Shown here one piece after another: positions 5,435 through 43,596 of a stretch of 64,000 nt of DNA. The stretch's first letter is position 1. Every line of letters starts with the position of its first letter. The stretch is taken from IMG/VR virus record IMGVR_UViG_3300016445_000001, one strand, 5' to 3'. The notes beneath the pieces were generated by a model, which worked only from the letters and a program-made list of their open reading frames with translations, made no database searches and had not been told where the DNA came from. The translations under genes were made by a program, and so were the position numbers. The stretch comes from a virus.

Positions 5435-6362
5435 CATCATCGCGCGGCTCAACCAGCACAATGACGAGGACACCCTGCCGCGCAGCCCCCGCGGCCTGTT
5501 CTACGACCTGCGGCCCAACGGGATGGGCAACGGGCTGACCTACGTCAAGCAGCCGCAGATGTGGTGCGTCCGCGGCGAGCACGTGATCGAGGGCGAGGGC
5601 CGCTGCCAGGCGCACCGCGGGCCGAGCCGCCGCGTGGACGAGACGCACATCAGCCCCAAGCACGTGCAGGAGACGCTGGTGCTGGCCCGCCGTGCCGGGC
5701 TCGTCCGCGAGAACTGGATCGAGGACACCCGGGCACCAACACCGGACGTCCCCTACTACTCCGACAGCTATGCGGAGGATCTGGTCGATGCCCTGGTGGA
5801 CGAGATCCGCCACCCCAACATCACCTGGTCCCCGCAGAACGGCCAGGACGTCTACCTGGAGGTGCTGGTCGAGGCGGCCGGCCTGATCGGCCGCACCGCC
5901 CGCGTCTGCCGTCCCTACGGCGTGCCGGTCTACTCGGGCGGCGGGTTCGATGGGCTCAAGGGCAAGCGGGCGTTCGCCTCCCGCGCGGCCGAGCGGCAGG
6001 TGCCGACGGTGGTGCTGCGGATCTCCGACTACGACGATCACGGGCTGATGATGTCCGAGAGCACCGCGGCCGACTGCGAAGCCTGGGCGATCATGTACTA
6101 CGGCTGTGACCCGGACAAGCTGACGTTTGAGCGGATCGCGCTGACCTACGAGCAGGCCGACGCCAACGACCTGCTGGACGCCGCGGGCAAGGCCGAGGCC
6201 GACGGGCTCCCGGTGCCGGTGATGGACGCCATCCTCCGCGATGCCATCGAGGCCCGCCAGGACCCGGACATCGCCGCCCGCAACATCGAGCGCGCCGAGG
6301 AGGAGACAGCCCGGGTGACCGAGCTGGTGCTGGCCGCGCTGAACGGTGGCGAGGACGAGTGA
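5358..6362 (+). CDS. Spo11/topoisomerase VI subunit A-like protein (CAP-Tyr plus Toprim motifs)
   Basis: 334 aa. PRGLFYDL resembles the Spo11/Top6A catalytic-Tyr motif. YLEVLVEAAG supplies a Toprim-type Glu and VVLRISDYDDHG a DxD. Behind leader GACACAGGAGCTGA. Confidence 0.45.
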   Translation: MGERPKGPIDRSWTPPSAWQQALLRDIIARLNQHNDEDTLPRSPRGLFYDLRPNGMGNGLTYVKQPQMWCVRGEHVIEGEGRCQAHRGPSRRVDETHISPKHVQETLVLARRAGLVRENWIEDTRAPTPDVPYYSDSYAEDLVDALVDEIRHPNITWSPQNGQDVYLEVLVEAAGLIGRTARVCRPYGVPVYSGGGFDGLKGKRAFASRAAERQVPTVVLRISDYDDHGLMMSESTAADCEAWAIMYYGCDPDKLTFERIALTYEQADANDLLDAAGKAEADGLPVPVMDAILRDAIEARQDPDIAARNIERAEEETARVTELVLAALNGGEDE

Positions 6363-7027
6363 TCATCCTTGACGGCTGCTGCGGCGCAGGAGGAGCTGCC
6401 CGCGGCTACACCGACGCCGGGCACGAGGTGTGGGGCGTGGACAGCGAGTGGCAGCCCAACTACCTCAAGTCCGGCGCGGTCAAGGTCTGGAAGGGGGACG
6501 TCCTGCGGGCGCTGCGCGTCCGGTCGCTGATCGAGCAGGTGGGCCTGATCCACCTGAGCCCGCCGTGCCAGCGCGGCTCCAAGATGACCAACTGCCGGCC
6601 CGGCCTGGCGGCCACCTACCCGGACCTGGTGGCCGCCGTCCGCGAGGCGGCGATCGAGACGGGCCTGCCGTATGTGATCGAGCAGCCCGAGCACGGCACC
6701 CCGCTGATCAACCCCACCACCCTGTGCGGCTGGATGTTCGGCTACGAGACGTACCGCCACCGCTGCTTTGAGGCTGGCGGCGGGCTGGTCCTGGCGCAGC
6801 CCCCGCAGCCGCCTGCGGGCAGCACCGGGCTCCGGTCATGTGGCTGGCCCCACCCGGTGGCCGCGGCGCGAGCGGGGCACTGGGAGCCGGGCAAGTTCGT
6901 CTCGGTGGCCGGGCACGAGCGGGTGACGCAGACGCGGCGGGTGATGGCGATCGACTGGACCAACCGCGAGGAGCTGGCCGAGGCTGTGCCGCCCTACATG
7001 ACGCGCTGGATCGGGGAGCAGCTATGA
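6359..7027 (+). CDS. DNA (cytosine-5) methyltransferase
   Basis: Motif I ILDGCCGAGG, motif IV SPPCQ, C-terminal AEAVPPYM. 222 aa, short phage-type enzyme. Confidence 0.88.
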   Translation: MIILDGCCGAGGAARGYTDAGHEVWGVDSEWQPNYLKSGAVKVWKGDVLRALRVRSLIEQVGLIHLSPPCQRGSKMTNCRPGLAATYPDLVAAVREAAIETGLPYVIEQPEHGTPLINPTTLCGWMFGYETYRHRCFEAGGGLVLAQPPQPPAGSTGLRSCGWPHPVAAARAGHWEPGKFVSVAGHERVTQTRRVMAIDWTNREELAEAVPPYMTRWIGEQL

Positions 7028-8455: not shown

Positions 8456-8920
8456 ATGAAGATCCGTACCCTGATCGCCGCCGTCTGCACCGGAGGCGCG
8501 CTGCTGTTTGCCGCGCCCGCGGTCGCATCGGCGGCACCGGTGGCTGGCCCGTCCAGCCACGCCACGTTCCTTGCCTCCGCGCCCGGCCGGCAGAGCTGCA
8601 CGCCGGGCGCGATCGGCACCGACGTCTACTGGCGACAGCCCGGCAGCGTCACCGTCTGGTGGAAGTCCAAGGCCACGCCGACCGACGGCTGCGCCTGGAT
8701 CGCCCCCGAGGCCCAGGACAGCGGCGGCCACGACACCTACGGTGGCAAGATCCACTATGACAACGGCGTGCAGTCCAAGGCCACCGTGTTTGACCAGGGC
8801 TACCTGGGCAAGGGCTGGGTGGTCGAGTGGACCGGCGCGAGCTGCTGGAAGCAACGGCTGTACCCCACGCAGACGGCGTGGCAGCGGCGGACCAACAGCT
8901 ACTGTTCCGGCCTGCCCTAA
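8456..8920 (+). CDS. secreted protein of unknown function (Sec signal peptide)
   Basis: MKIRTLIAAVCTGGALLFAAPAVASA|AP is a typical signal peptide. Four Cys in the mature part. RBS AGAGGAG. Bracketed by hairpins. Confidence 0.7.
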   Translation: MKIRTLIAAVCTGGALLFAAPAVASAAPVAGPSSHATFLASAPGRQSCTPGAIGTDVYWRQPGSVTVWWKSKATPTDGCAWIAPEAQDSGGHDTYGGKIHYDNGVQSKATVFDQGYLGKGWVVEWTGASCWKQRLYPTQTAWQRRTNSYCSGLP

Positions 8921-9105
8921 CCGGCCCCGCCCCGAGCGCCGCTCTCCCCCGGGAGGGCGGCGCTTGGCGTTGCCAGCAGCAGCCGGATCGCCACCCGGAA
9001 GCCGTCGGTATTGGAGATCCCCTCCTCACGGCACCTGGCCAGGAACGGCAACCACAGCTCGTCCTCGATCCGGCCCGCGCTGCGGTTGGGCGTCTCGGCC
9101 ATCAT
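8917..9105 (-). CDS. small DNA-binding-like protein (ribbon-helix-helix candidate)
   Basis: 62 aa. GRIEDELWLPFLARCREEGISNTDGFRVAIRLLL resembles the strand-helix-helix layout of CopG/Arc-type proteins. Divergent from the operator-like site at 9135-9148. Confidence 0.4.
   Translation of the reverse strand: MMAETPNRSAGRIEDELWLPFLARCREEGISNTDGFRVAIRLLLATPSAALPGESGARGGAG
8935..8964. terminator. stem-loop between convergent genes (about 12 bp, one G-U pair)
   Basis: AGCGCCGCTCTCCC..GGGAGGGCGGCGCT. Overlaps the 3' end of the minus-strand ORF 8917..9105. Confidence 0.45.
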
Positions 9106-9134
9106 CAGCTCCCCGGCGCTACAGTAGGTATGTG

Positions 9135-9148
9135 GCTGTAAGTACAGG
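9135..9148. promoter_or_regulatory. operator-like near-palindrome gCTGTAAGTACAGG
   Basis: Core TGTAAGTACA recurs at 43564-43577 and 43583-43596, and inverted at 57337-57350. Lies in the divergent intergenic region 9106-9176. Confidence 0.6.
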
Positions 9149-9176
9149 GCAGCGGGAGCCCGTGCTTCCCGGGAGC

Positions 9177-9824
9177 GTGAGCGCCGCGGACAGGGCGGTC
9201 GGCGTGGTCAGCGTCGGTGCCACCGTGGCCGCCCTGGTGCTGTCCTATCGGAACCTCCTTGACTTTGCCACGGCAACGATCTACAAGATGCCGCTGGCCC
9301 TGATCTTTCCATTGATCATTGACTCGTTCGTGGTCTACGGGGAGCTGCGCCTCTACAGCGCCACCTGGCGCAAGGAGGACAACTGGATCAAGGCCAGGAT
9401 GTGGGCGATCACCATCGGCGGGCTGGCCGCCTCAGTGCTGGCCAACGGGTGGAAGTACGAGCACTCACCAAGATCATTCTGGCTCGCTGCGGCAGCGGCC
9501 CCGCTCGCCGCAGCGATTGGCCTGGGCGTCGGGCTCGGGCTGGTGAAGCGGAACGCGCAAGGGGCTGATCACTCCAAGCAGGAACAGCAGGGCATCCCCG
9601 CTGGTGCAGCCGAGCCCCGGTCGGTGGCGGCAGCACGCCCTGTGTCCGCAGACACTAGCCCGGCCCGGCGTCCAGCCGGCAAGGCGGACCCGGACCTGGT
9701 GGCCAAGCTACTCGCCGACCGGCGCGAGGGGCTCCCCCTCGGGCGGGTGAGGGTGGTCGAGCGGCACGGCGTCACCGAGCATGCGGCGCGGACCGCGCTG
9801 CGCGAGCTGAACGGAAGCGCATGA
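9177..9824 (+). CDS. DUF2637-like integral membrane protein
   Basis: GTG 9177 after GGGAG (alternative GTG 9162). VLSYRNLLDFA...LIFPLIIDSFVVYGELRL pattern and four TM segments are typical of DUF2637 proteins of actinomycete mobile elements. Confidence 0.6.
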   Translation: MSAADRAVGVVSVGATVAALVLSYRNLLDFATATIYKMPLALIFPLIIDSFVVYGELRLYSATWRKEDNWIKARMWAITIGGLAASVLANGWKYEHSPRSFWLAAAAAPLAAAIGLGVGLGLVKRNAQGADHSKQEQQGIPAGAAEPRSVAAARPVSADTSPARRPAGKADPDLVAKLLADRREGLPLGRVRVVERHGVTEHAARTALRELNGSA

Positions 9825-10051
9825 GCGACCAGCAGGATCTCTACCTCCAGCTCAAGGAGGCCCGGCCGGCGCACCCGTGGCAGGAGCTGCACGTCAAGGA
9901 CGGCGTGTGGGAGGGCCACCGGGCGATCGTCGTTACCACCGGCCCGGATGACGCCGCTGCGGTGTTCATGTTCGACTCGGCCGGCAACCTGACGCACCTC
10001 TCGGTGGTCGAGGCCCACGGCGAGGAGGAGGCCCGCTGCGGGCCAGGCTAG
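9821..10051 (+). CDS. hypothetical protein
   Basis: 76-aa ORF with an ATGA overlap to the upstream gene. Its stop shares CTAG with the convergent gene. Confidence 0.5.
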   Translation: MSDQQDLYLQLKEARPAHPWQELHVKDGVWEGHRAIVVTTGPDDAAAVFMFDSAGNLTHLSVVEAHGEEEARCGPG

Positions 10052-10272
10052 GGATCACACATCCCGGCCTGGGCCAGCGCCCTGATCTCGGCGGGGGTGA
10101 CCGTCACCTCGCCCCCGCCGTCCAGCTCCACCGTGATGTGCCGCGGCGGCTGGCCGCCCGCCGCGTGGTGCCAGTCCATCGTCACCTCGCCCATCGACCA
10201 GTCCTGAACGTCCAGCAGGACGCGCCCCCTGCCGTGGGGAGTCTCCACGCGGTCGCCTGGCAGGAACTGCAT
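10048..10272 (-). CDS. hypothetical small protein co-transcribed with the GntR regulator
   Basis: ATG 10272 overlaps the GntR TGA by 1 nt. 74 aa (MQFLPGDRVETPHGRGRVLL...). Confidence 0.55.
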   Translation of the reverse strand: MQFLPGDRVETPHGRGRVLLDVQDWSMGEVTMDWHHAAGGQPPRHITVELDGGGEVTVTPAEIRALAQAGMCDP

Positions 10273-11012
10273 CACATCTCCAAGATCAGCCGAGCCCGGT
10301 CCCCGGGCCAGCGCGTCACCGACACGAACACCACGCCGCCAGCATGCAGCCCGGTCCGGTGCTCGACAAGCAGCGGCACCCCTGGCGGGATCTCCAGCAC
10401 GCCCGTCTCGGCGTGGTCGGGCATCCGCGTCTCGATCTCCACCGTGATCGTGTCCGGCGACTGGCCGATGCCGGACAGGTAGGGGATCGAGCCCTCGGGG
10501 ATGTCCTCGGGGTAGGCCAGCTTGGTGCCCCGGGCCAGCACCCGCGGGAACGTCCACGTGACCAGGTTGTGCGGCTTGCCGTCCACCAGCCTGAGCTGCT
10601 CGCGGGTGATCACCGGCGTGGCCATCGAGAGGCCCAGCCGCCGCGCCAGCTCGCCCGCCTCGTGGGAGCGCACCCACAGCCGCACCCCCGGGACGTGGCC
10701 CAGGTCGGCGACGTCGTGCGCCCAGGAGTCAGCACCGGGCGTGGGGGACTGGTGGTTGGCCACCCGGGAGGCCGGGCGGGTGACGTGGACCTGGAGCAGC
10801 ACCCGCGGGTCCGCCACCTGGCGGCGGGCACCTCCTGCCCCGCGCACCAGCCCCCGGTTCTCCAGGTAGCCCAGCGCCTGGCGGACGGTAGACCGGGCGA
10901 GCTGGTGCTCCCGCGCCAGATCCGCCTCCGACGGCAGCAGGTCACCCGGCTTGAGTTCACCGCTGGTGATCTGCGCCTCGATCAAAGCCGCGAGATCCGA
11001 CCACTTGGGCAT
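10272..11012 (-). CDS. GntR-family transcriptional regulator, HutC subfamily (wHTH plus UTRA-like domain)
   Basis: LPSEADLAREHQLARSTVRQALGYLENRGLV is a canonical GntR wHTH. About 170-aa C-terminal effector-type domain. GGGAGG RBS before ATG 11012. Confidence 0.88.
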   Translation of the reverse strand: MPKWSDLAALIEAQITSGELKPGDLLPSEADLAREHQLARSTVRQALGYLENRGLVRGAGGARRQVADPRVLLQVHVTRPASRVANHQSPTPGADSWAHDVADLGHVPGVRLWVRSHEAGELARRLGLSMATPVITREQLRLVDGKPHNLVTWTFPRVLARGTKLAYPEDIPEGSIPYLSGIGQSPDTITVEIETRMPDHAETGVLEIPPGVPLLVEHRTGLHAGGVVFVSVTRWPGDRARLILEM

Positions 11013-11025
11013 GGAATCCCTCCCG

Positions 11026-11049
11026 CCTGTAGGGACTTGTACGAACAGG
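11026..11049. promoter_or_regulatory. degenerate operator-like copies CCTGTAGGGACTTGTACGAACAGG
   Basis: 11036-11049 matches CCTGTACTTACAGG at 11/14 and 11026-11039 matches at 10/14. Lies in the divergent region between the GntR gene and the 11095 operon. Confidence 0.3.
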
Positions 11050-11094
11050 AAGCGTACACTGACGGTCTGACCACACACAGTGAGGGAGGCGGCG

Positions 11095-11283
11095 ATGGCA
11101 CAGCGTGACGCTGAGCTGGAGCACAACGGCCGGCACGTTACCACTCTGCGCGTGGACGCCGACGCCACCCAGGACGAGCTGCGGGACGCTGCCCAGGACT
11201 GGCTGGAGTCCGACGGCTGGGACCGGGACCGGTTCCGCGAGTTTGAGCTGGTGTCCGGGCGCACCAGGGTGAGGGCCGCCTGA
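11095..11283 (+). CDS. hypothetical small acidic protein
   Basis: ATG 11095 after GGGAGG. First gene of the operon diverging from the GntR gene. Confidence 0.55.
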   Translation: MAQRDAELEHNGRHVTTLRVDADATQDELRDAAQDWLESDGWDRDRFREFELVSGRTRVRAA

Positions 11284-11531
11284 TGGCCGGGCACCGGGCA
11301 CGTCTTGCCGACGGCACCCGCGAGCCCAGGCGGTCGGACATGCGCGCGGTGAATCGCGGAGGCCACCGCGCTCGTGTCCACGCCGAGCCGACGGCCGAGG
11401 GCCAGTTCTACGCCGCGTACAACTGGCTCACCTCGGCCGCGGCCGGGCACCCGGGCCGCGCCGACGCGCTGCACCGTGTGGCCACGCTGATGGCCAACGA
11501 GGCCGCGGGCCTGGAGAGGAGCGCGGCATGA
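11283..11531 (+). CDS. hypothetical protein
   Basis: 82-aa ORF overlapping both neighbours. Confidence 0.45.
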   Translation: MAGHRARLADGTREPRRSDMRAVNRGGHRARVHAEPTAEGQFYAAYNWLTSAAAGHPGRADALHRVATLMANEAAGLERSAA

Positions 11532-11926
11532 GCCCGCCTGCCCAGGCAGAGGTGATCGAGCTGCCCCGCCGGCCACCCGCAGAGCCCGGAAGCGGTGGGG
11601 CCAACGCGCAGGCACGCGCGCCTGCGCGCGAGGAGCGCCGGCACCTGATGCCGTCCGCCACGGCGGTGAACGGGGTGCTGGCCGGCAGCTCGGTGCTCCA
11701 CACGCCGCCCCCGGCGATCATGGCCGTGTGGGCGCAGCACTGTGCTGCGGCCCGCTACTACAACGGGTGGATCTTGCGCTGGCCGCGGTTCATCTACGGG
11801 GCCTGGCACACCTGGACGGTGGCCGCGCCCGCCTACTTCATCGTGTGGGCCACCGACTCGATGCCCAAGCTGATGGCCACCGTGGCAGTCCTCGCTCTCA
11901 CCGTGTGGCTGCTGGCCGGGAGGTGA
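11528..11926 (+). CDS. membrane protein (Spd-like candidate)
   Basis: 132 aa with C-terminal hydrophobic helices. ATGA overlap. Confidence 0.55.
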   Translation: MSPPAQAEVIELPRRPPAEPGSGGANAQARAPAREERRHLMPSATAVNGVLAGSSVLHTPPPAIMAVWAQHCAAARYYNGWILRWPRFIYGAWHTWTVAAPAYFIVWATDSMPKLMATVAVLALTVWLLAGR

Positions 11927-11927
11927 C

Positions 11928-12344
11928 ATGTCCCTGACTCCGACTGAGCTGGGCGCGCTGCTGATCGCGCTGTCGATCACCGCCTACGCGCTCGGCCGCC
12001 TGCCCAAGGCCCGCGCCGTGGCGATCTTCCTGGGCGTGGTGCTGCTCGGCCTGTCCGGCCACCTGGTCAGCATCGCCGCCAAGGGGATCACGATCTTGCA
12101 GAGCCTGGGCGGCACCGCCACCGCGTGGGCGTTCGGCGCTGCCGTGCCCGGCCTGCTGGTGGCCGTCGGCGGGTTCATCCTGATCCACGACGTGATGCCC
12201 AAGCACAGCGCCAAGCGGCGCACGTTCTGGCTGGCGCTGGCGCTCGGCGTGATCGTCGCCGCGGGAGCGTCCGGTATCCCGGCGCTGTCCAACCTGGCAC
12301 CCGCCACCCGCACCGCGGTGACGCAGACCACCTCGGCAGGCTGA
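11928..12344 (+). CDS. polytopic membrane protein (Spd-like candidate)
   Basis: 138 aa, four hydrophobic segments. Confidence 0.65.
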   Translation: MSLTPTELGALLIALSITAYALGRLPKARAVAIFLGVVLLGLSGHLVSIAAKGITILQSLGGTATAWAFGAAVPGLLVAVGGFILIHDVMPKHSAKRRTFWLALALGVIVAAGASGIPALSNLAPATRTAVTQTTSAG

Positions 12345-12345
12345 C

Positions 12346-13206
12346 ATGCAACTGCTGCTGCTGGTAGCCATCCTGTGGGCGTGCCGGGAGGCGTGGAACA
12401 CCACCCACGCCGCGGCCGGGAGAGCCCGCACCCGCGCCCGTTCGGCGGCAACAGCACGGGGTGGCCACTACAACCGGGAGGCGGTCAAGCGCCGCGCCGC
12501 CCGCCAGGCGACCGTGGGCTACTGGGCGCGGGAGGCCCGCCACGGGTTCCCCGACACCCGCCACGGGTTCCGCGCCGGGTGGTCGGACCACCAGCACTCG
12601 GTGGCCGAGCATGACCGGGACGAGGCCACCCGGGAGGCCGACCGCGAGCACGAGCGGGCGGGCTGGCGGGAGCAGGCCGCCGAGCACCGCCGCCGCCTGG
12701 AGGAGGCGGCCCGCAAGCGGCGCGAGCGCGAGAAGGACTCCACGCCAGGAGATGGCGGCGGGGGACGGCCTGACCCGCCGCCCCTCGCCGACGGCACGAC
12801 GGCAGGCGCACCACACCCACCACCGAGCAGCAACGGGAAAGGACCACCAGTGACTACACCACCAGGCGGCGGCAGCGGCAGCGGCGGCGATGGCACCTAT
12901 GACGAGACACTCGCTATCTGCAAGCGGGCGGTCGAGCTGTGCGACCAGATGGCCGCGGACATGGACCTGGGCGCGGTCAAGGCCCTCGCCGACCAGCTCG
13001 GCGCGATGGTCCCCGAGGACAAGACGACACTGGGCATGGCCGGGGAGATGGCCACCGCGGCGCACGACGTAGAGACAGCGATCCGCGAGCTGCAAGAGCG
13101 CGCCCAGGCGCTGCACGATCGGGTCGAGCAGACCTACGGCCAGGTGCAGGAGGCCAAGGACGCCAGCGGCGAGAAGCTGCCCGAGCCTGAGTTCGTGGAG
13201 CACTAG
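12346..13206 (+). CDS. membrane-anchored protein with charged, Gly/Pro-rich and helical regions
   Basis: 286 aa. N-terminal TM (LLLLVAILWAC), Arg/Glu-rich segment, Pro/Gly linker, helical C-terminus. Confidence 0.55.
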   Translation: MQLLLLVAILWACREAWNTTHAAAGRARTRARSAATARGGHYNREAVKRRAARQATVGYWAREARHGFPDTRHGFRAGWSDHQHSVAEHDRDEATREADREHERAGWREQAAEHRRRLEEAARKRREREKDSTPGDGGGGRPDPPPLADGTTAGAPHPPPSSNGKGPPVTTPPGGGSGSGGDGTYDETLAICKRAVELCDQMAADMDLGAVKALADQLGAMVPEDKTTLGMAGEMATAAHDVETAIRELQERAQALHDRVEQTYGQVQEAKDASGEKLPEPEFVEH

Positions 13207-13207
13207 C

Positions 13208-15013
13208 TTGGCCAAGGCCCCCGACCCCAACCGGCCCCGGCGTTCCAAGCCAGGGCCGGTTGTGGTCACGGGGCCGGACGCGGACAAGATCGCCAAGCAG
13301 ATCCACCGCAACACCAAGCCCGAGCTGCGCCCGTTCCGGTTCCGCTACCAGCTCGCCCCGCTTGGCTGGGCGGGCCTGGCCGCCAGCGGCCTGGTGATCA
13401 CCTGGAGCGTGGCCGCCGTGGCGGGCCTGGTGGCCGCGGGCATCACAGTGGCGGCCACCCGTCACCGCGGCGCGTTCGCCAGGCGGCACTGCCAGGCGAT
13501 GGCAGCGTGGGCCGCCTGCTGGATGTTCGTGCTGAGCGTGGCCGGCCCCGGCCCGTGGCTGGCGGCAGGGCTGCTCGGCTGGGCCATCCCGTCGGCGTTC
13601 TGGCTGCACCACTACCGGTGGCGGCCCGCCACCTCGGAAGCGGCCCGGGAGCGGACGGTCGAGGAGAAGTGGGCGCTGCTCGCCGAGCGGATGAAGTGGG
13701 CGGCCGGGCTCAAGGTAATCGGGGCCATCGAGGGCGGCGAGCAGTGGGAGATCGTCTGCAACGGCGCGGTGACCCACATCGGCAAGATCCTCACCGCCCG
13801 GGATGACATCGCCGCGGCGTTCCACGCGGCGATCACTGAGGCGTATGCCGAGCCCCACCGGGACGGCAGGAGGCACCACGGGCTGCTGACCATCCTGCGC
13901 GAGGGCACCCTGGAGAAGGTCCGCGAGTGGGACGGCGGCACCATCGACCCGGAGACAGGGCTGGCGGTGATCGGCCGGTTCCCCGACGGCAAGCCGGTCC
14001 ACGAGCGTTACCTGGGCCTGCCCGAGGACGGGGTGAAACACACGATCATCGCCGGGGCCGACGGCAGCGGCAAGACAGCGACGATCAACCTCGGCCTGTC
14101 CATCTCGGCCACGTCCGGCCTGATCGCCCCGGTGATCTTGGACCCGCAGATGGGCCAGGCGCTGCCCGACTGGCGGGATTTCGTGCCGTATGCCTGCGGC
14201 GTGGACGAGTGCATGACCTGGCTGCGCGGGCTGCACGCCGGGATGTTCGCCCGGTCGGAGATGCTCGCCAACATCGCCTGGACCGACGCCAAGGGCCGGC
14301 CGCGGCGCGGCTTCCGGTTCTTCAACCCCTACATGCTGGCCAAGCTCGGCCTGGACGTGCCGATCATCGAGATCACCATTGACGAGGCCCCGATCCTGCT
14401 GGCCGTCAAGGGAGCCTCCGCGCTGATCTTGGACATCGCCAAGCTCGGCCGCAAGGCCGGGTTCCGGCTGCGGCTGGCCGCCCAGGTGCCCAGCCTCGCC
14501 GAGCTGAAAGCGGGCGAGCTGCGCTCGATCCTCAACGGCGGGAACGTGATCTGCCACCGCACCGGCGACAAGGTGAGCAGCGGGATGCTGAACATCCCGG
14601 CCAACCCGCACGAGCTGCCCAAGCAGTTCGCCGACGGCAGCCTGACCTACGGGCTCGGGTTCGCCGGCGGCCCGGACGCGCGGCCCTCGGTGACGATGCG
14701 CTCGGACTGGGTGCCCGACCCCTACGACGTCGCCGCCACCACACCGGTCCGCCAGCCGGACGAGCTGGTGTGGGAGCGGGTGCAGCACGCGGTGGCCGCT
14801 GCCGGCCAGGTGCTGCACGAGCTGCGCGAGGCGGCCGACGTCCAGAAGCTGCACGAGCTGGAGATCCTCGCCGCGCTCCAGCGGCCGATGGGACTGGGCG
14901 AACTGATCAGCACCGTCGATGGGATGACGGTCAGCCAGGTGGCCGAGGAGGTTGGCCGGCTGCGGGATGCTGGCAAGATCCGCGGAGACGAGCTACTGGA
15001 GGCAGTGACGTGA
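13208..15013 (+). CDS. FtsK/SpoIIIE-family DNA translocase, TraB/TraSA-like
   Basis: 601 aa, TTG start. N-terminal TM helices, Walker A GADGSGKT, Walker B IIEITIDEAP, C-terminal wHTH-like segment (GELISTVDGMTVSQVAEEVGRLRDAGKI). Confidence 0.85.
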   Translation: MAKAPDPNRPRRSKPGPVVVTGPDADKIAKQIHRNTKPELRPFRFRYQLAPLGWAGLAASGLVITWSVAAVAGLVAAGITVAATRHRGAFARRHCQAMAAWAACWMFVLSVAGPGPWLAAGLLGWAIPSAFWLHHYRWRPATSEAARERTVEEKWALLAERMKWAAGLKVIGAIEGGEQWEIVCNGAVTHIGKILTARDDIAAAFHAAITEAYAEPHRDGRRHHGLLTILREGTLEKVREWDGGTIDPETGLAVIGRFPDGKPVHERYLGLPEDGVKHTIIAGADGSGKTATINLGLSISATSGLIAPVILDPQMGQALPDWRDFVPYACGVDECMTWLRGLHAGMFARSEMLANIAWTDAKGRPRRGFRFFNPYMLAKLGLDVPIIEITIDEAPILLAVKGASALILDIAKLGRKAGFRLRLAAQVPSLAELKAGELRSILNGGNVICHRTGDKVSSGMLNIPANPHELPKQFADGSLTYGLGFAGGPDARPSVTMRSDWVPDPYDVAATTPVRQPDELVWERVQHAVAAAGQVLHELREAADVQKLHELEILAALQRPMGLGELISTVDGMTVSQVAEEVGRLRDAGKIRGDELLEAVT

Positions 15014-15408
15014 GAGACATCCCGATGCACACCGGCCCGGCGCAGCAGCTCGCCAACGGCGGCCCGCGGGTCCACTGGCTGGACGAGGACCAGCGGGTGC
15101 AGGACTACGACGGCGCGCTGCCCGCCTCGCTGCGGGTGATCGTCCGCGAGGTGTTCAGCCGCTCGACCGCCGACGGAAACGGTGAGGTCTACGTGGTGTT
15201 CCAGCTCGTGGAGGAGATCGACACCGGCGAGGAGGGCAACCGCCCCGAGGTGGTCACGCTGAACAGCCACGACAAGATCCTCAACCACCTGATCGCGGAG
15301 GCCGAGCCGATGGGCTCCGATGTCCAGGCCGCGGTGGTCCACGCCTACGGCGAGGGGATCAAGACAGGCAGGCATGGAGTGGTCGATGATCGCCAGCCTC
15401 CTGGTTAG
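15010..15408 (+). CDS. hypothetical protein
   Basis: GTG 15010 overlaps the translocase stop (alternative ATG 15025). Confidence 0.5.
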   Translation: MRDIPMHTGPAQQLANGGPRVHWLDEDQRVQDYDGALPASLRVIVREVFSRSTADGNGEVYVVFQLVEEIDTGEEGNRPEVVTLNSHDKILNHLIAEAEPMGSDVQAAVVHAYGEGIKTGRHGVVDDRQPPG

Positions 15409-15781
15409 CCGGGAGACGCGGCGGCGCTACCGGCACGGGCGGCCCCGTTCCAAGCAGCGCAGCTCGCGGATCAGCAAGCGGCTCCGCGCCCGGGTGATGC
15501 GCGCCGACCGGAAGCGGTGCGTCTACTGCGGCAGCAGGCAGCAGCCACAGATCGACCACGTGATCCCGTGGATCATGGGCGGCCTGACCTGGTATCCCAA
15601 CCTGTGCGTGCTGTGCAAGGAGCACAACGGGATCAAGGGGATCTACTGGGTGAGCCCGCAGGGCAAGACGTACTACAAGCCCGCGTGGGGTGCCCGCTCT
15701 GACGTGGCGATGGCGCGGGACATCCACGCCGCGGAGATCAGGGCTCGGCTGTCTCTTGGCCGGGCGTTCCGGGCGGGGTGA
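15374..15781 (+). CDS. HNH endonuclease
   Basis: CVYCGSRQQPQIDHVIPWIMGG...NLCVLCKEHNGIK is the HNH (H-N-H, Cys4) signature. Confidence 0.85.
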   Translation: MEWSMIASLLVSRETRRRYRHGRPRSKQRSSRISKRLRARVMRADRKRCVYCGSRQQPQIDHVIPWIMGGLTWYPNLCVLCKEHNGIKGIYWVSPQGKTYYKPAWGARSDVAMARDIHAAEIRARLSLGRAFRAG

Positions 15782-15995
15782 CCGGCAGGCACCCGGTGAT
15801 CGGGTCGGCCCGCGGGTCGCGGGGCTCGGTGTGCTCCCCGTCCGGGTCGAGCTGCTCCAGCACCAGCCGGATCGGCACGTCGGTGTGCCCGCCGGCCTGG
15901 AGCGCGCTCAGCACCCTGACCGCCTCGGCCACCCGCTCGCGCTCGGGGCACTTGTCAGCAGCGGGGGGCTCCTGCTGCCGCCAGGGGAGCCTCAC
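15738..15995 (-). CDS. hypothetical protein (last gene of the lysis/late operon)
   Basis: 85 aa. GTG overlaps the endolysin TGA (GTGA). Nearly every third codon position is G/C. Overlaps the convergent HNH gene by 44 nt. Confidence 0.5.
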   Translation of the reverse strand: MRLPWRQQEPPAADKCPERERVAEAVRVLSALQAGGHTDVPIRLVLEQLDPDGEHTEPRDPRADPITGCLPVTPPGTPGQETAEP

Positions 15996-16852
15996 TCGTT
16001 GCTCGTGTAGAACACCCAGCCGACCGGCATCTTGGCGTCCTGCTCGGCGTCAAGGTCAGTCTGCGTGACGTTCTGGACCATGTGGGTCCACACGGTCAGC
16101 ACCTGGCTGTTGCGCAGCGCGGCCAGCTCCTTCATCGAGGTGGCCTGGGTGAGCACGTGCCGGTAGGGGCCGCCTGGCTTGGGCTGGGTGGTGGTGAACG
16201 GCCGGGCCACCTGGGCGGGCGCGGTGGAGTGGTGAGGCGGGCTGGCGTAGGTGAGCCCGAACATGTTCTCCAGGTCGGCCTGGCTCATGCCGTCGGCGCT
16301 GTTCAGGTCCGAGCTGCCAAACGGCGGGGTGTTGGCGTTGTCCATGAACTGGTGCGCGAACTTGCCCGGGTAAGACGGGTTGGAGCCGTAGGCGGCGACC
16401 ACCAGCCGGATGCCCTGCGGTTTCTGCGGCCACAGCGCGTTCAGGTCGGAGGTGTTGCCGTAGCCGACCACCCGCCGCTTGTCACCCAGCCACCGGGCCA
16501 GCTCCTCGTACTGGGCGTTGATCGCGGCGGACTGGTTGCCGCCGATCTGCCCGCCCGCGGACTCCACGTCGATCATCACGGTGAGCTTGGGGTCCGGGTG
16601 GCCCACCCGCTGCATCAGCAGCCCGGCCCCGTTGAAGCCCGGCCGGTAGAAGTAGTAGACCATGAAGCCCCACAGCTTGCCGCTGTGAACCGCGCCGCGA
16701 GCCCAGGCCAGGTTCTGCGGGAAATGATGGTCCTCGTAGCTGCCATCGTTGGACCGGAAGCACAGGAACTGGTGCGGATACCTGTTGTCTACCGGGATCT
16801 GAAACTCGCTGACGTCCGACCAGAGCGTGTCAACCACAGCGGCTCCCGCCAC
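15992..16852 (-). CDS. endolysin, GH25-like (TIM-barrel lysozyme-type) with C-terminal extra domain
   Basis: WSDVSEFQ...FLCFRSNDGSYEDHHF...MVYYFYRPG...MIDVES pattern resembles GH25/DUF1906-type muramidases. Sits after the tail genes next to small membrane proteins. Confidence 0.6.
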   Translation of the reverse strand: MAGAAVVDTLWSDVSEFQIPVDNRYPHQFLCFRSNDGSYEDHHFPQNLAWARGAVHSGKLWGFMVYYFYRPGFNGAGLLMQRVGHPDPKLTVMIDVESAGGQIGGNQSAAINAQYEELARWLGDKRRVVGYGNTSDLNALWPQKPQGIRLVVAAYGSNPSYPGKFAHQFMDNANTPPFGSSDLNSADGMSQADLENMFGLTYASPPHHSTAPAQVARPFTTTQPKPGGPYRHVLTQATSMKELAALRNSQVLTVWTHMVQNVTQTDLDAEQDAKMPVGWVFYTSNE

Positions 16853-17370: not shown

Positions 17371-17675
17371 ATCGGGCCAATGACCTGCTTGATGTTGACC
17401 AGGTAGTCATGCGCCCCGGTCGGCTGCGGGTAGCCAGCAGGGGGCAGCCCGTTGTAGATGATCGCCCGCGCGGCCATCCCGTCGGCGTAGGCGCTGCGCA
17501 GGAACGTGACATCCTGGGCGGTGAAGCCCATCGCCTCCAGCGTCGGATCGTCCTGGGCGGCCAGCCAGTTCTGGAAGTTGGACATATCATCCATCGCCTG
17601 CCGCCACCGCAGGAAGATGTCCTGGGTGCGGTTCATGATGTTGGGCTGGCTGGCGTTGTCAGCAAACATGATCAT
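17367..17675 (-). CDS. hypothetical protein
   Basis: ATG 17675 at a TGATCATG junction with the fibre gene stop. 102 aa. Confidence 0.55.
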   Translation of the reverse strand: MIMFADNASQPNIMNRTQDIFLRWRQAMDDMSNFQNWLAAQDDPTLEAMGFTAQDVTFLRSAYADGMAARAIIYNGLPPAGYPQPTGAHDYLVNIKQVIGPI

Positions 17676-19987
17676 CCAATCTGCGTGAGGGACATCCGCG
17701 AGCCCGAGAAGATCCGGGTATTGGTGCCCGAGCTGGTGCCCTGCGCCCACCAGAACTGGACCGGGCCGGCCACCGAGCCCATGAACACGGTGCCGACGAT
17801 CTGGAAGCCCCACGCCGGGTTGGCGGTGCCGTTGGTGTAGGCGATCTTGGTGGGCGCGATGTAGGACGTCTCGTTGTAGACCGGGGCGTTGGAGGTGTTC
17901 ATGTAGACCGGGACGAGCCAGTCGATCTCGGTGCCGCTCGGGCTCACCATCGTGAACTTGAGATTGGAGCCGCCGCTGGCCGCGCCGCTGTAAAAGATCA
18001 CCATGTCCAGGTCGTAGATCGCGTTGGCCAGGCAGTTGATCGACAGGTACGGGTCCGCGGCCAGGGTGGTGGTGGACGCCCGCCCGTAGCTGGTCGCGCC
18101 GGACGGCGCGTAGCCCGCCATCGTCATCAGGTTGAGCCCGTTGCCGTAGATCGCTGGCGTGTTGCCGGTCGGCACCGACTGGAGCAGCAGCGCGGAGGCG
18201 ACGTCGGTGGAGAGCGTCTTGGGCGAGGTGAGCTGGAGCTGCTCAGCAGCGGGGGCCTGCACCTGTCCCGGTGCGCTCTCCCCGGCCTGGCCCTGGAGCT
18301 TGATGGTGGTGTTGTTGAACACCTCAAACCCGGCCGGGCACGCCAGGCCCAGCAACGGGTCTGTGCTGGCGAGCCCGCACAGCGAGGCGACCAGGCTGTT
18401 TCCGGTCGGGGTGAAGGTGAGCCGCAGCCATCCCGGCTGCCCGTAGGCCCCGACGTGGCCACCGGACGGGCCGGCCCCGCCACCGCCGCCGTAGCCGCCG
18501 CCGACGTCCCCGGAGTCGTTCAGCGAGCCGCCGCCGAAGCCGTTGCCCCCGGAGCCGCCACCCGGCACGGCGGACGCGCCGTAGCCGGTGTTCGGCGCAT
18601 TGTTGCCAGACGCCGACGGGCCGGCCGAGCCGCCCCCGCCACCGCCGTGACCGGATGGGCCGCCGTTGACCGTCGGCGCATAGCCGAGCCCGCCCGGGTG
18701 GTGGGTGGTGTTGGTCGAGTAGACCGGCGTGGCGTGGCTGCCGGTAGTGAGCCCGCCGCGCCCGCCGTTGGCCACCAGGCTGACCGCATCGCCGGGGAAC
18801 ACGATCTGCCCGCCGTTACCGCCGTTGACGCTGCCGAGGATGCCCTGCCCGCCAGGTGACCCGATCGTGAAGGCGTACCCGCGGCCGGGGGTCACGGCCA
18901 GGCTGGGCTCCAGGCTGTACTCACCGCCGTCACCTCCGCCGGCCTTGGTGGTGGAGGTGCCGTAGGCCCCGCCGCCACCGGGGGCCAGGCCCTCGGTCCG
19001 CACCGTGGTGACGCCGGGCGGGGCGATCCAGGTGCCGCTGGCGTAGAAGGTCTGCGTCGTGGTGCCGCCCTGGCTGTAGGCGTAGATGCCACCCGTGGTC
19101 CCCGAGATCAGCAGGTTGGAGGCGTTGATCGTGGTGCCGTTGATCGTCAGCCCGTTGATCGTCATGCCGTCGATCGCGCCCGCGGCGACCAGCCCGGCGA
19201 CGATCTGGTTGCCCGCGATCAGGTCGGAGGTGATCGAGCTGGCGACGATCGCATTGTGGCCGAACTGGTAGGGCAGCCACGCGGTCCCGTTCCATTGGTT
19301 CATCACGTAGCCGTTGGTCGCGTCGAACCACAGGTCGCCCGGGTTGGGCGCACCGGGCGGGTTGGGTCCGATGGCCACGTTGACGCCACCGGGCGTGGCG
19401 ATCTGGAAGGTGACCATGCCCGGGGTGATCGAGGACGGCGGGATCTGGTCCACCACGCCCTGAGCTATCGCGGACATGTAGTCCGACGTCGGCCCCTGCA
19501 TGCCGGCCTGGTTGGTGACGATGAACAGGACGTAGTAGAGCGTGTCCGGGGTGAGCCCGGTGATCTGCCGGGTGCCCGCGGTGCCCATCAGGAACTGGAG
19601 CGTGGCCGAGCCCGGGATGAAATTGGCCTGGGTCGAGCAGTGGACTTGGACGCCGGCGAAGTCGGCCAGCGGCGGGGAGCCGTCGGACATGTTGCCGTCC
19701 CAGCTCACGTTCAGCCCGTTGACCGCGGGGTAGAGCACCGGGTCCGACGGCTGCGGGGGCGTGCTGCCGGTGAGCTGGAGGTGGGCGAACGTGCCGTCGG
19801 CCTGGAGCCCGAGGATGATCTGCGGGTTGCCGTTGGCGTCGTTGATCGTCAGCGCGCCGTTCTCGATCGAGGACTGGTCGAGCTGGGTGCTGTTCGCGCC
19901 GCGCTCCAGCATGGTGATCCGCCGCTGGAGCGTGGCCAGCTCGCGGGACAGCCGCAGCATCTCGGTGCCCAGGTTCGGTGTCGTCAC
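17672..19987 (-). CDS. minor tail / tail fibre protein with FN3-like and glycine-rich domains
   Basis: 771 aa, GTG overlaps the upstream TGA. N-terminal coiled coil, FN3-like segment (LNVSWDG...LTPDTLYYVLFIV), long Gly-rich tract (GGGGGGSAG...GGYGGGGGAG). Confidence 0.75.
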   Translation of the reverse strand: MTTPNLGTEMLRLSRELATLQRRITMLERGANSTQLDQSSIENGALTINDANGNPQIILGLQADGTFAHLQLTGSTPPQPSDPVLYPAVNGLNVSWDGNMSDGSPPLADFAGVQVHCSTQANFIPGSATLQFLMGTAGTRQITGLTPDTLYYVLFIVTNQAGMQGPTSDYMSAIAQGVVDQIPPSSITPGMVTFQIATPGGVNVAIGPNPPGAPNPGDLWFDATNGYVMNQWNGTAWLPYQFGHNAIVASSITSDLIAGNQIVAGLVAAGAIDGMTINGLTINGTTINASNLLISGTTGGIYAYSQGGTTTQTFYASGTWIAPPGVTTVRTEGLAPGGGGAYGTSTTKAGGGDGGEYSLEPSLAVTPGRGYAFTIGSPGGQGILGSVNGGNGGQIVFPGDAVSLVANGGRGGLTTGSHATPVYSTNTTHHPGGLGYAPTVNGGPSGHGGGGGGSAGPSASGNNAPNTGYGASAVPGGGSGGNGFGGGSLNDSGDVGGGYGGGGGAGPSGGHVGAYGQPGWLRLTFTPTGNSLVASLCGLASTDPLLGLACPAGFEVFNNTTIKLQGQAGESAPGQVQAPAAEQLQLTSPKTLSTDVASALLLQSVPTGNTPAIYGNGLNLMTMAGYAPSGATSYGRASTTTLAADPYLSINCLANAIYDLDMVIFYSGAASGGSNLKFTMVSPSGTEIDWLVPVYMNTSNAPVYNETSYIAPTKIAYTNGTANPAWGFQIVGTVFMGSVAGPVQFWWAQGTSSGTNTRIFSGSRMSLTQIG

Positions 19988-21684
19988 ATCGTCCCCGCCT
20001 GCCCGCTCTGCGCCAGGTAGGTGAAGCTGTCCGACCTGGCGCACGTGAGCGTGATGATGTCCTCCTGCGGGTTCTGGCTCATGGAGGTGATCCGGCACCA
20101 GATCCCGGCGTTGCGCCACCCGGTGGCCATCGTGACCAAAATGTCATCGCCGCACCTGAACGAGCCAAAGGGCGCGTTCGGGTGGTTCTTCACCACCACC
20201 GTCTGCGGCGTGTCGATGGCGATCCGGCTGGTGAGGATCGCCTGCGCCCGGGACTGGAGCCGGGCCTGGGTGCGGATGGTCTGGTCGGTGTAGACGAACA
20301 CCCGGCGCAGCGTGTTGTTGGGCGTGCCGATCTGGGCGCGGACCTGGAGGCTGCCCTGCCCCGCGCCGAGCCCAACCACCTCGTTGGCGTAGACCGAGCC
20401 GTCCCGGCTGCCCTGCACGGGCACCGTGATGTTCTCCCCCTCGGCGAACCGCAGCGACGTCTGCCGGACGCCGATCCGCGGGACGCCGAAGTGCAGCGCG
20501 TGCTTGACGCCCTGCCGGGTGGCGTCGGTCCATGTGTGCTGCTCGTAGAAGTCGAACACCGCCTCGGTGGCGATGTTGCCGATCTCCTGGCCGATGTCTG
20601 TGCTGTTCCACCAGTCGAGGACGAACGGGGTGGGCACGTTGGAGCCCGGCCCGCCCTGGATCACCTTGGTGCCCGCGTTGTGGTCGCCGCGGATCGCCGA
20701 CCCGAGGGTGAACACGTTCTTGCTGATCTTGGAGATCGAGTACCAGTTGTTGCTGTCGGCCAGGTTGACCTGGCTGGAGGTGGTGAATCCGGTGGGGTTG
20801 TTGACGGTGATCGTGGTCGAGCCGTCCCTGGCCCGCACCGCCAGGTTGGTGCTCATGAACTGGTTGGACTGGAGCTGCGCGCCGAGCAGCACGCCCGCCT
20901 TGGTGGCATCGAGGACCAGTCCGATGTTGCCGCCCGGCTGGGCCTGCACCCAGGCCCACAGCATCCGCACCACGTCCAGCGCGTCGATCTGCACCTGGCT
21001 GTAGTTGGAGCCCTCGTAGATGATCCCGTTGGCGTAGCCGACGAATCCGGTGAAGGTCGGCGTCCAGGCCGGCCCGTTGTAGGTGGAGGCGGTGAGGATG
21101 CCGCCGAACTTGATCTCGCTGTTCTCCTCCAGGTAGCACGCGGTCTGCCACTCGGTGGGCAGCGGGTTGCCGGTGGAGTCGAGCAGCTCCCGCCGTGGCG
21201 GCTGCACCTGGCAGGAGAACGTGTCCGGCTGGTCCAGGTTCCAGGTGATGTTGGGCTGCTGGATGGCCCGCAGGTCCCGGGTGATCCACGCGCCGGTGAT
21301 CAGGTTCTGGAGGTGCATCCTCGGCATGGTGGGGTTGATGAACGCCTGCGGCGCGGCGCGGGCGTAGAACGCCGGGGTAGGCGCGGGCGCGGTGCCCTTG
21401 ACCACCAGCAGGCCCTCCCACGCGCCCGCTGCCTCGCGGGTGGCGAGGGCGAACGCCTGGGACACGGTGAAGCTGTAGCCGGGGATGTCATCGACCGCGG
21501 CGGCGGTGTCGAACGTGCTGGGCGTCTCGGCGACCGCCAGGCCCCCGGTGTTCTGGTCATCGAGCGCCGCGGCGTCATCGAACACCTGGATCAGGTTGGG
21601 GCTGGAGACAGCCAGGCCGCCCTGGTCCGACGCTGCCGCGCTGTCGGTCAGCGTGATGTTGTGGTAGCCGCCGCCGTCGGGCAT
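19984..21684 (-). CDS. minor tail protein
   Basis: 566 aa in the tail gene string. Start overlaps the stop of the giant gene. Confidence 0.65.
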   Translation of the reverse strand: MPDGGGYHNITLTDSAAASDQGGLAVSSPNLIQVFDDAAALDDQNTGGLAVAETPSTFDTAAAVDDIPGYSFTVSQAFALATREAAGAWEGLLVVKGTAPAPTPAFYARAAPQAFINPTMPRMHLQNLITGAWITRDLRAIQQPNITWNLDQPDTFSCQVQPPRRELLDSTGNPLPTEWQTACYLEENSEIKFGGILTASTYNGPAWTPTFTGFVGYANGIIYEGSNYSQVQIDALDVVRMLWAWVQAQPGGNIGLVLDATKAGVLLGAQLQSNQFMSTNLAVRARDGSTTITVNNPTGFTTSSQVNLADSNNWYSISKISKNVFTLGSAIRGDHNAGTKVIQGGPGSNVPTPFVLDWWNSTDIGQEIGNIATEAVFDFYEQHTWTDATRQGVKHALHFGVPRIGVRQTSLRFAEGENITVPVQGSRDGSVYANEVVGLGAGQGSLQVRAQIGTPNNTLRRVFVYTDQTIRTQARLQSRAQAILTSRIAIDTPQTVVVKNHPNAPFGSFRCGDDILVTMATGWRNAGIWCRITSMSQNPQEDIITLTCARSDSFTYLAQSGQAGTM

Positions 21685-43563: not shown

Positions 43564-43596
43564 CCTGTAAGTACAGGTGAGGACTGTAAGTACAGG
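43564..43596. promoter_or_regulatory. two tandem operator-like sites CCTGTAAGTACAGGTG / aCTGTAAGTACAGGTG (19-bp register)
   Basis: Read directly at 43564-43577 and 43583-43596, in the 138-bp gap upstream of gene 42230..43462. Confidence 0.6.

Follow-up and report, generated by a model that had tools for sequence, protein, structure and literature searches.

A probable TraB-like DNA translocation module under GntR control in a tailed-phage genome

We analysed a stretch of 64,000 nucleotides (nt) of the IMG/VR virus record IMGVR_UViG_3300016445_000001 (the window, to which all coordinates refer), in which a preliminary description had placed a Streptomyces-type DNA transfer module at positions 9177–15013. 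G+C is ~70% along the entire window, which reads as a single phage genome: a block of small early genes runs rightward from ~0.6 to 15.8 kb and a leftward block follows. The module forms the distal end of the rightward block, and the genes listed for it are present at or near their proposed positions, both as open reading frames (ORFs) and in gene calls of the Joint Genome Institute (JGI). As set out below, we consider it highly probable that this region encodes a TraB-like machine for translocating double-stranded DNA (dsDNA) under the control of a GntR-family regulator.

Genes of the module and their conservation

Gene calling based on G+C at third codon positions and independent JGI gene calls on near-identical contigs agree on the following map, in which protein lengths are in amino acids (aa) and related loci are cited by L numbers.

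8917–9102, minus strand: 61-aa small protein, divergent from the DUF2637 gene (ORF and JGI call)
9162–9824 (alternative start 9177), plus strand: DUF2637 membrane protein, 220 aa (Pfam PF10935, E = 3e-8, above cutoff)
9821–10051, plus strand: 76-aa ORF (gene calls; no family match)
10048–10272, minus strand: 74-aa ORF 3' of the GntR gene (gene calls; 59–60% identical in L005 and L006)
10272–11012, minus strand: GntR/UTRA (HutC-type) regulator (Pfam GntR, E = 2e-12; UTRA, E = 3e-14)
11095–11283, plus strand: 62-aa acidic soluble protein, first gene of the operon (ORF and JGI call)
11283–11531, plus strand: 82-aa protein, its start overlapping the preceding stop (kept in L005 and L006 only)
11528–11926, plus strand: 132-aa protein with a C-terminal hydrophobic helix region (hydropathy; kept in eight phage-like loci)
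11928–12344, plus strand: 138-aa polytopic membrane protein (hydropathy; 13-sequence alignment A2)
12346–13206, plus strand: 286-aa protein (alignment A3)
13208 (TTG, 601 aa) or 13262 (GTG, 583 aa) to 15013, plus strand: TraB/FtsK-type ATPase
15010–15408, plus strand: 132-aa ORF overlapping the ATPase stop (gene calls; homologue in L006 only)
15386–15781, plus strand: HNH endonuclease, final gene of the rightward block (weak Pfam HNH_5 match in the JGI annotation)

From 11095 on, the genes run divergently from the GntR gene, with stops and starts that overlap or lie 1 nt apart, and they read as one translationally coupled operon; a scan of the module for sigma-70 promoters and terminators found none. 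Three membrane proteins had been described between 11528 and 13206. This holds for the 132-aa and 138-aa proteins, but the count is slightly generous because the 286-aa protein has only a short N-terminal anchor and is at most singly anchored. Its layout comprises this hydrophobic anchor, a basic/coiled-coil region, a Pro/Gly-rich linker and a conserved C-terminal helical domain. The 138-aa protein has three hydrophobic segments by scan and four as read from the sequence, with a conserved H-D-x-x-P-K motif between the final two helices (alignment A2). The neighbouring DUF2637-like membrane protein had been recognized correctly: beyond its Pfam match, a hydropathy scan gives at least three hydrophobic segments, and its C-terminal segment appears by eye to resemble a helix-turn-helix. 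For the ATPase, the JGI collection calls the 583-aa version and so has no entry for the exact 601-aa product; we favour the longer 601-aa form because several homologues cover 99–100% of that query. An inverted repeat at 13218–13272 (24 nt, 83% complementary, 7-nt loop) lies between the TTG and GTG starts and may control ATPase translation. Just upstream of the small-protein/DUF2637 pair, a 154-aa protein with a signal-peptide-like N-terminus (MKIRTLIAAVCTGGALLFAAPAVASA) is encoded at 8456–8920 (plus strand) and is possibly a secreted or lipoprotein moron.

Relatives of the module in IMG/VR were found by an alignment-driven scan, a single-protein query having given nothing. ATPase homologues occur in 14 IMG/VR viral contigs (17–115 kb) and in three contigs of metagenome-assembled genomes (MAGs), two of the three from Streptosporangiaceae and one of them 83.7 kb long. 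Megablast of positions 9000–16000 against 50,697 phage records gave zero matches, and tblastn against the same records gave one weak match, LittleE gp198. Against plasmids, tblastn found relatives in 72 actinomycete plasmids (61 of them from Streptomyces), with up to 40% identity over the motor; their genera include Streptomyces, Kitasatospora and Micromonospora. The 286-aa profile has weak matches in the two genes just ahead of the plasmid ATPase (N-terminus 88% and C-terminal domain 52% probability), which hints that the plasmid and phage modules may be homologous beyond the ATPase.

Among the related loci, tblastn showed that the 138-aa protein, the 286-aa protein and the ATPase co-occur in almost all, and that the 132-aa and 62-aa proteins are found in many (the latter in L005, L006, L008, L010, L013, L014, L017 and L020). 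The GntR, 61-aa, DUF2637 and HNH proteins are found in the four closest loci (L005, L006, L007 and L019), where the HNH gene keeps its position at 46–51% identity and the 61-aa protein, 60–65% identical, has a DUF2637 partner in every case. Local hidden Markov models added a DUF2637-like ORF in nine further loci, in seven of them no more than ~0.5 kb downstream of the ATPase gene, and, in four loci, short upstream GntR-like genes that run on the other strand. At most 10 kb separate virion genes from the module in L005, L007, L008, L009, L011, L012, L015, L018 and L019. The ATPase, its membrane partners and DUF2637 stand together in at least 15 phage-like metagenomic contigs, so that related phages do retain the membrane partners. 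Because these loci carry different terminase families (PHROG 38 in L012; 979 in L011 and L018), the cassette is kept as a unit across several phage lineages.

The ATPase and its family

The gene had been described as a membrane-anchored FtsK/SpoIIIE ATPase, and this identification is borne out. Its N-terminus is hydrophobic by hydropathy, and the Walker A (GADGSGKT) and Walker B (IDEAP) motifs are invariant in 29 homologues (alignment A1). An AlphaFold2 model with a mean predicted local distance difference test score (pLDDT) of 88 consists of four N-terminal helices (aa 32–117, pLDDT >90), an alpha/beta domain, a long helix and a helix-helix-helix-strand end. A Foldseek search with this model placed the dsDNA-bound FtsK motor at the top (E = 3e-16, ~400 columns, target TM-score 0.63–0.66), followed by the conjugation coupling protein TcpA (E = 4e-13) and EccC/EssC, with HerA-type proteins far behind. 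The profile of alignment A1 also matched the FtsK motor best among solved structures (E = 1e-7). As to the winged helix-turn-helix (wHTH)-like segment described at the C-terminus, the helix-helix-helix-strand order is predicted and the predicted secondary structure of the last ~85 alignment positions is compatible with it, but the wHTH matches of these positions in the Protein Data Bank are weak (E = 0.06–0.6); a C-terminal wHTH is thus a prediction from the model.

The ATPase is a single motor domain within 583 aa. It matches Pfam FtsK_SpoIIIE (PF01580) with E = 0.006 and 16.5 bits against a cutoff of 24, and a PHROG annotated 'FtsK/SpoIIIE-like' with E = 1e-4. When the 29 members were scanned against NCBIfam, plasmid_TraB was the top match for 12 (best E = 2e-14) and FtsK for one. 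A phmmer search of 1.84 billion representatives yielded 397 matches at E ≤ 1e-3 and 149 at E ≤ 1e-30, mostly of 600–700 aa. Because the search returned 397 matches only and left the bulk of chromosomal FtsK unreached, the ATPase, judged by sequence, forms a small separate family outside the huge cellular FtsK family. Three other assignments were rejected: membership of chromosomal FtsK/SpoIIIE, on the sub-cutoff PF01580 score and the 397 phmmer matches among 1.84 billion; a packaging ATPase, the large terminase being a separate gene (53630–55258); and membership of type VII EccC/EssC, with one motor domain found here and no tandem FtsK-like ATPase domains. By profile and structure, then, the protein is neither a packaging enzyme nor a bulk chromosomal FtsK, and TraB is its commonest family match.

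A type VII-like secretion ATPase that exports phage proteins would fit the weak EccCa matches of 11 of the 29 members (best E = 2.4e-5) and the presence of EccC and EssC among the structural matches. EccC carries three ATPase domains, however, against one here. The C-terminus is predicted to be wHTH-like and DNA-binding, dsDNA-bound FtsK is the best structural match, and the family scans of the module contained no WXG100-like or other type VII secretion component. We find this explanation scarcely credible.

Profile–profile comparison of alignment A1 by hhalign gave its strongest match to a plasmid ATPase (NZ_CP119148.1; E = 1e-42, 283 columns), followed by a 'transfer protein' of a Kitasatospora plasmid (E = 2e-16, 278 columns) and LittleE gp198 (E = 5e-10, 153 columns, P-loop core only). 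Further matches were the Escherichia coli FtsK motor (E = 1.3e-7, 189 columns), Tra of pZL12 (E = 1.4e-7, 94%, 370 columns, from the membrane region on), P1312 ORF63 (E = 3e-6, 182 columns) and pIJ101 Tra (E = 1.9e-5, 242 columns); Hiyaa gp102 was not significant. BLASTP aligned the ATPase with pZL12 Tra weakly from end to end (24.7% identity over 527 aa). The distance between one validated Tra protein and another is as great as their distance from this ATPase: pZL12 Tra has no BLASTP match to pIJ101 Tra, and it has no Pfam FtsK match at E ≤ 0.01.

The FtsK-type fold would also suit a phage pump that handles DNA of the host or of the phage at septa formed during division or sporulation, where it might clear or trap DNA, pump genomes into prespores or interfere with host FtsK/SffA, with replication or spore dispersal as the gain. 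FtsK itself is the best structural match, and an Lsr2-like gene lies elsewhere in the genome. Homologues of ftsK, parB and ssgA in actinophages have been listed as candidates for the manipulation of host development (PMC10117723), and the FtsK-like ORF63 of P1312 was interpreted as serving DNA segregation (PMC4569894). Even so, we regard such a septal role as unlikely: phmmer does not reach the bulk of chromosomal FtsK, the nearest relatives are plasmid-borne in the same module arrangement, and dedicated membrane partners with a Kor-like repressor typify transfer loci.

Exclusion was among the uses suggested in the preliminary description, but we think it very unlikely that the pump and its partners serve superinfection exclusion or defence by expelling or blocking competing phage or plasmid DNA. 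The genes do sit in the early rightward block, and FtsK/HerA-type ATPases occur in defence systems, HerA complexes being among the distant structural matches of the ATPase. Yet HerA-type structures match far worse than FtsK, PADLOC gives only a weak P-loop match (E = 1e-4), and the occurrence of the same module beside linear-plasmid core genes suits transfer better.

Regulatory sites and genome context

The GntR regulator is 35% identical to pIJ101 KorA over the helix-turn-helix and 28% identical to the GntR protein of the plasmid module, and is a candidate Kor/TraR-like repressor of the divergent operon. The module and the virion genes had been described as sharing an operator motif. A recurring palindrome, CTGTAAGTACAG(G), is indeed present, and the relevant sites are as follows.

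9135–9148: palindromic operator GCTGTAAGTACAGG, its TGTA and TACA half-sites abutting, in the gap that separates the small-protein and DUF2637 genes
11037–11059: half-sites TTGTAC-N11-GTACAC in the GntR/operon intergenic region, a candidate operator of the tra-like operon
43564–43596: two tandem palindrome copies, CCTGTAAGTACAGG and ACTGTAAGTACAGG (at 43564 and 43583), ~100 nt upstream of an ORF at 42230–43462 (minus strand) that precedes the head genes
57337–57350, minus strand: palindrome copy upstream of the Pro-rich ORF 56027–57268 (minus strand), which heads the terminase/portal operon

One further exact copy lies beyond the window, at position 2403 of L026; at three or fewer mismatches, 10 matches were observed against 1.9 expected, and by our reading of the gene map all copies are intergenic. 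Either TGTAAGTACA or TGTACGTACA stands between the small-protein gene and the DUF2637 gene in L005, L006, L007 and L019, a position kept even in L005, where that pair is inverted. The GntR/operon intergenic region contains only an 11/14 match to the palindrome. There, the window shares with L005, L006 and L019 the strictly conserved half-sites TTGTAC-N10/11-GTACAC, whose spacer varies from 10 to 11 nt; words taken from this intergenic region have no second occurrence elsewhere in the window. The shared operator therefore stands in altered form: exact copies mark the DUF2637 gene and the late operons and the spaced version the tra-like promoter, and the palindrome marks a genome-wide TGTAC/GTACA regulon that is not specific to the module. 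A single regulator reading TGTAC/GTACA could recognise the half-sites whether they abut or are spaced by one helical turn, and either the GntR protein or the 61-aa small protein may be that regulator. The 61-aa protein looks ribbon-helix-helix-like when read by eye and is a candidate binder of the palindromic operator. A cassette of small-protein gene, palindrome and DUF2637 gene (5533–6383) is inverted with respect to the GntR gene and the operon in L005, a 75-kb relative; because the three are inverted together, they constitute a separable unit. The 413-aa Pro-rich, repeat-laden ORF at 56027–57268 (minus strand) has no family match and is followed immediately by a 236-aa ORF and the large terminase gene.

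As the preliminary description had it, the same replicon contains a complete siphovirus virion module; this fills the rest of the window and comprises head, portal, terminase, tape measure, lysin region and tail fibre. The identified genes outside the module are as follows.

15992–16852, leftward block: putative lysin (translation and position; Pfam without match)
17672–20119, leftward block: putative tail fibre (translation and position)
30490–34131, leftward block: tape measure (PHROG profile)
39358–40155, leftward block: major head protein (PHROG profile)
52029–53639, leftward block: portal (PHROG profile)
53630–55258, leftward block: large terminase (PHROG profile)
60358–61857, minus strand: primase-helicase (PHROG profile)

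Proteins of the window occur on contigs of 80,036 to 80,340 bp, each of which opens at another point of one circle; these contigs (loci L003 and L026–L031) come from JGI soil metagenomes and one European Nucleotide Archive assembly. The ~80-kb assemblies carry very low contig numbers (for example, _10000001). One window protein is present in 336 collection blocks, 210 of which have contigs of 50–200 kb, and a 141-kb contig appears in one cluster record. According to precomputed annotation, the 16 kb beyond the window encode an SNF2 helicase, a PD-(D/E)XK nuclease, a DUF932 protein, a MarR-like protein, DNA polymerase A (PolA), an Lsr2-like protein, a NADAR protein and a Prim-Pol. The ~80-kb genome thus has a replication set of its own in PolA, the primase-helicase and the Prim-Pol. 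Precomputed Pfam annotation of the three loci that span the non-virion part and scans of large ORFs found no integrase and no ParA/ParB in this genome, a negative that covers annotated genes and large ORFs and that small or divergent functions could escape. Scans for tRNA genes and Rfam families gave no match. Because the contigs are circularly permuted and neither an integrase nor a tRNA gene was found, the element is neither an actinomycete integrative and conjugative element (AICE) nor a prophage caught in a chromosome. The reported lack of relaxase and type IV secretion genes also holds: no relaxase, VirB4, coupling protein or type IV secretion gene was detected among the genes checked, which did not include every small ORF. 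Related contigs have been binned with Streptosporangiaceae MAGs, and the host is probably a mycelial actinomycete of this family.

The same genome features bear on another explanation, in which the pump and its wHTH replace ParAB as a segregation or maintenance device and distribute genomes of an extrachromosomal state, pseudolysogenic or plasmid, among the hyphal compartments of a single mycelium. No ParAB or integrase was detected, the genome has its own replication set, and complete circularly permuted contigs of ~80 kb come from very many samples, all of which would fit such a state. There is, however, no sign of a repressed carrier state, with the GntR gene and the putative ribbon-helix-helix gene as the only repressor candidates, and the mechanism overlaps with the intramycelial spreading that we propose below. 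We consider a dedicated segregation device quite unlikely.

Several further features of the window were noted. Beside the primase-helicase gene, an AT-richer non-coding stretch at 60091–60431 contains some six repeats of 10 bp (GCAGATCCTC), along with TTCCACCTA in two copies, and looks like an iteron-type replication origin. The 10-mer CTGTTGACAG, which contains TTGACA, occurs exactly at 2558, 7205, 59294 and 61122, a frequency not above chance (5 matches against 3.1 expected at up to one mismatch). At least the copies at 2558 and 7205 lie in AT-richer gaps just upstream of rightward genes and may be the -35 context of early promoters. A 1885-aa ORF at 21684–27341 (minus strand), between the tail-fibre genes and the tape-measure region, has a C-terminal part 40–45% identical in L005 and L019 and is presumed to encode a giant tail or host-recognition protein. 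In the early block, a 222-aa ORF at 6359–7027 (plus strand) resembles a cytosine-5 DNA methyltransferase by eye, and the protein encoded at 5523–6362 (plus strand) matches PHROG 6247 ('DNA topoisomerase'; E = 4.5e-15) and is 67% identical in the Streptosporangiaceae MAG contig L019.

Proposed role and comparison with known systems

What the analysis shows is which genes are present, the fold and membrane anchoring, the retention of the set as a unit and its relation to plasmid modules; on this basis we propose how a TraB-like machine could work in this phage. The ATPase would assemble as a membrane ring through its four N-terminal helices; its C-terminal winged helix would bind phage DNA and its FtsK-type motor would pump it, with a DNA specificity and a direction that we infer. 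The channel itself, at septal cross-walls or hyphal contacts, would be built or placed by the DUF2637 protein, the 138-aa protein with its approximately four helices, the 286-aa protein with its anchor and coiled coil, and the 132-aa protein, and the GntR protein would repress the operon. Replicating or plasmid-state phage DNA could then leave an infected compartment for adjacent compartments or hyphae, as Streptomyces plasmids do in conjugative transfer and 'spreading'. Among the roles considered, this virion-independent passage of phage DNA from one compartment or hypha of a mycelial host to another is the most probable, but we see the balance for it as even; we hold it there because no donor-maintenance functions and no clt were found. 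More tentatively still, a widespread soil phage that has no recognisable lysogeny or maintenance genes might pass its naked genome through the pump, across cross-walls or points of hyphal contact, such that one adsorption infects many compartments without virions, and the pump cassette (ATPase, DUF2637, two or three membrane partners and GntR) might move between linear plasmids and several unrelated phage lineages, a combined scenario that we consider possible but doubtful.

Several results weigh against a TraB-like transfer machine. The NCBIfam plasmid_TraB model (NF041214) matches the ATPase with E = 1e-9 and 37 bits against a curated cutoff of 800, and the TraB and FtsK model scores both fall well short of their curated cutoffs. 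By profile E-value, E. coli FtsK and pZL12 Tra are equidistant from the family (1.3e-7 and 1.4e-7), so membership of TraB rests on architecture, plasmid kinship and context and not on sequence. BLASTP and hhalign revealed no homology of the partner proteins to SpdA, SpdB or KilB of pIJ101 or to pZL12.72c/73c. The partners had no NCBIfam Spd match, and profiles of the 138-aa and 286-aa proteins found nothing significant among pIJ101 Spd/KilB, pZL12.70c–79c and the neighbours of the Hiyaa and P1312 ATPase genes. We also searched for clt with Tandem Repeats Finder and by tests of local 8-mer clustering, Markov over-representation and strand skew. These searches revealed no clt-like cluster of 8-bp repeats near the 3' end of the ATPase gene, where such repeats had been suggested, or elsewhere in the window, nor at the equivalent place in 12 related loci; this negative concerns clustered repeats, and a dispersed or degenerate site could escape it. 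The best candidate, ACGAGCTG, occurs five times at 14601–15400, ranks that region no higher than the top 8% of windows of 800 nt and is not kept in relatives; the word corresponds to repeated His/Asp-Glu-Leu codons. The densest repeats of the window, GACCCGG-like words at 56.7–57.0 kb, were rejected as clt and read as a coding repeat because they lie within the Pro-rich minus-strand ORF. Finally, since neither an integrase nor ParAB was found in the ~80-kb genome, the stable donor state needed for classical conjugation is not evident, and the plasmid-like spread first envisaged for this element lacks a maintenance system.

To our knowledge, Streptomyces-type conjugation is the sole known bacterial transfer of dsDNA by a single FtsK-like pump, and we know of dsDNA conjugation so far only as a trait of plasmids and AICEs, with pZL12 as the lone phage-linked case. 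If the module moves phage DNA, spreading inside a mycelium without virions would be a strategy of general importance to phage genomes, other models would be required for plaque dynamics and burst size in multicellular bacteria, and the boundary between phages and conjugative elements would blur. The orphan family DUF2637 also gains a concrete, testable context.

The closest functional models are the TraB, Tra and TraSA systems of pSVH1, pIJ101 and pSAM2. In Streptomyces plasmids, TraB is an FtsK-like hexameric pump that reads 8-bp clt repeats and combines membrane association, a motor and a wHTH; GntR repressors of the TraR/Kor type pair with tra as kil-kor; and Spd proteins are membrane proteins encoded in translationally coupled operons (PMC4447253). 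The module in the window shares with these systems a membrane-associated FtsK-like motor, a divergent gene for a GntR-family regulator (a candidate repressor here), small membrane proteins in a coupled operon and the lack of relaxase and type IV secretion genes, and a C-terminal wHTH like theirs is predicted for its motor protein. As in TraB, the membrane helices of the ATPase join directly to a single motor and a wHTH-like end within ~600 aa. It differs in being part of a phage replicon, without Spd homology or clt repeats found, and in its order: in pIJ101, tra comes first and the spd genes after, whereas here the ATPase gene follows the small genes. The likeness to kor-spd-traB modules therefore extends to the gene set, to TraB as the nearest family and to plasmid kinship, but not to the classical gene order or to Spd homology. 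Putative SpdB2 homologues on phiC31 and VWB have been suggested to aid the spread of phage DNA (PMC4447253).

Outside metagenomic phages, the closest relatives of the ATPase are encoded on Streptomyces linear plasmids (for example NZ_CP119148.1 and NZ_CP109321.1), with 39–40% identity over the motor. There too a GntR gene on the opposite strand, a DUF2637 gene and several small genes precede the ATPase; the plasmid proteins are bigger (ATPase ~700 aa, DUF2637 578–664 aa) and annotated as hypothetical. FtsK-like genes are also annotated in other tailed actinophages, namely Hiyaa-like Streptomyces phages, Thermobifida phage P1312 and cluster-J mycobacteriophages, where roles in segregation or development have been put forward for them. 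A membrane protein of the Streptomyces phage Hiyaa, gp98, which is encoded near the FtsK-like gene, has a weak DUF2637 match. The sequence kinship of Hiyaa gp102, P1312 ORF63 and LittleE gp198 with the ATPase is nevertheless remote or absent, and gp198 of the Mycobacterium phage LittleE has 442 aa, of which nothing N-terminal of the P-loop core aligns. Chromosomal FtsK/SpoIIIE has the same motor fold and is the best structural match, but the ATPase lacks its long linker and belongs to a mobile element with dedicated partners. AICEs differ in having an integrase with an att site, which was not found here.

The nearest precedent is pZL12, recorded as Streptomyces phage ZL12 (GQ919031, 90.4 kb). 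In its locus, the GntR gene pZL12.80 diverges from 79c–74c (small), 73c (membrane), 72c and 71c (FtsK/SpoIIIE-like Tra), and virion genes come next. Both elements are tailed-phage genomes of similar size (90 kb against ~80 kb here) in which a GntR gene diverges from small genes, one or more membrane proteins and a terminal FtsK-like ATPase of ~600–725 aa, with virion genes adjoining. Conjugal transfer of pZL12 has been reported to require tra and two adjacent genes (PMC3583192), and the combination of transfer locus and virion genes is not without precedent. The two differ in that pZL12 has ParA/ParB and integrases, for which no counterpart was found here; its partner proteins are not detectably homologous to those here, its transfer-locus proteins have no match to the DUF2637 profile (nor do pZL12.71c–73c match Pfam), and its virion and replication modules are unrelated at the levels searched. 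A tailed actinophage with a Streptomyces-type tra locus is therefore already known from pZL12. What the present module adds to it is a separate ATPase family whose fixed set of partners includes DUF2637, the recurrence of this family across many uncultured phage lineages and linear plasmids, and its occurrence in an abundant phage in which integrase and partition genes are not recognisable.

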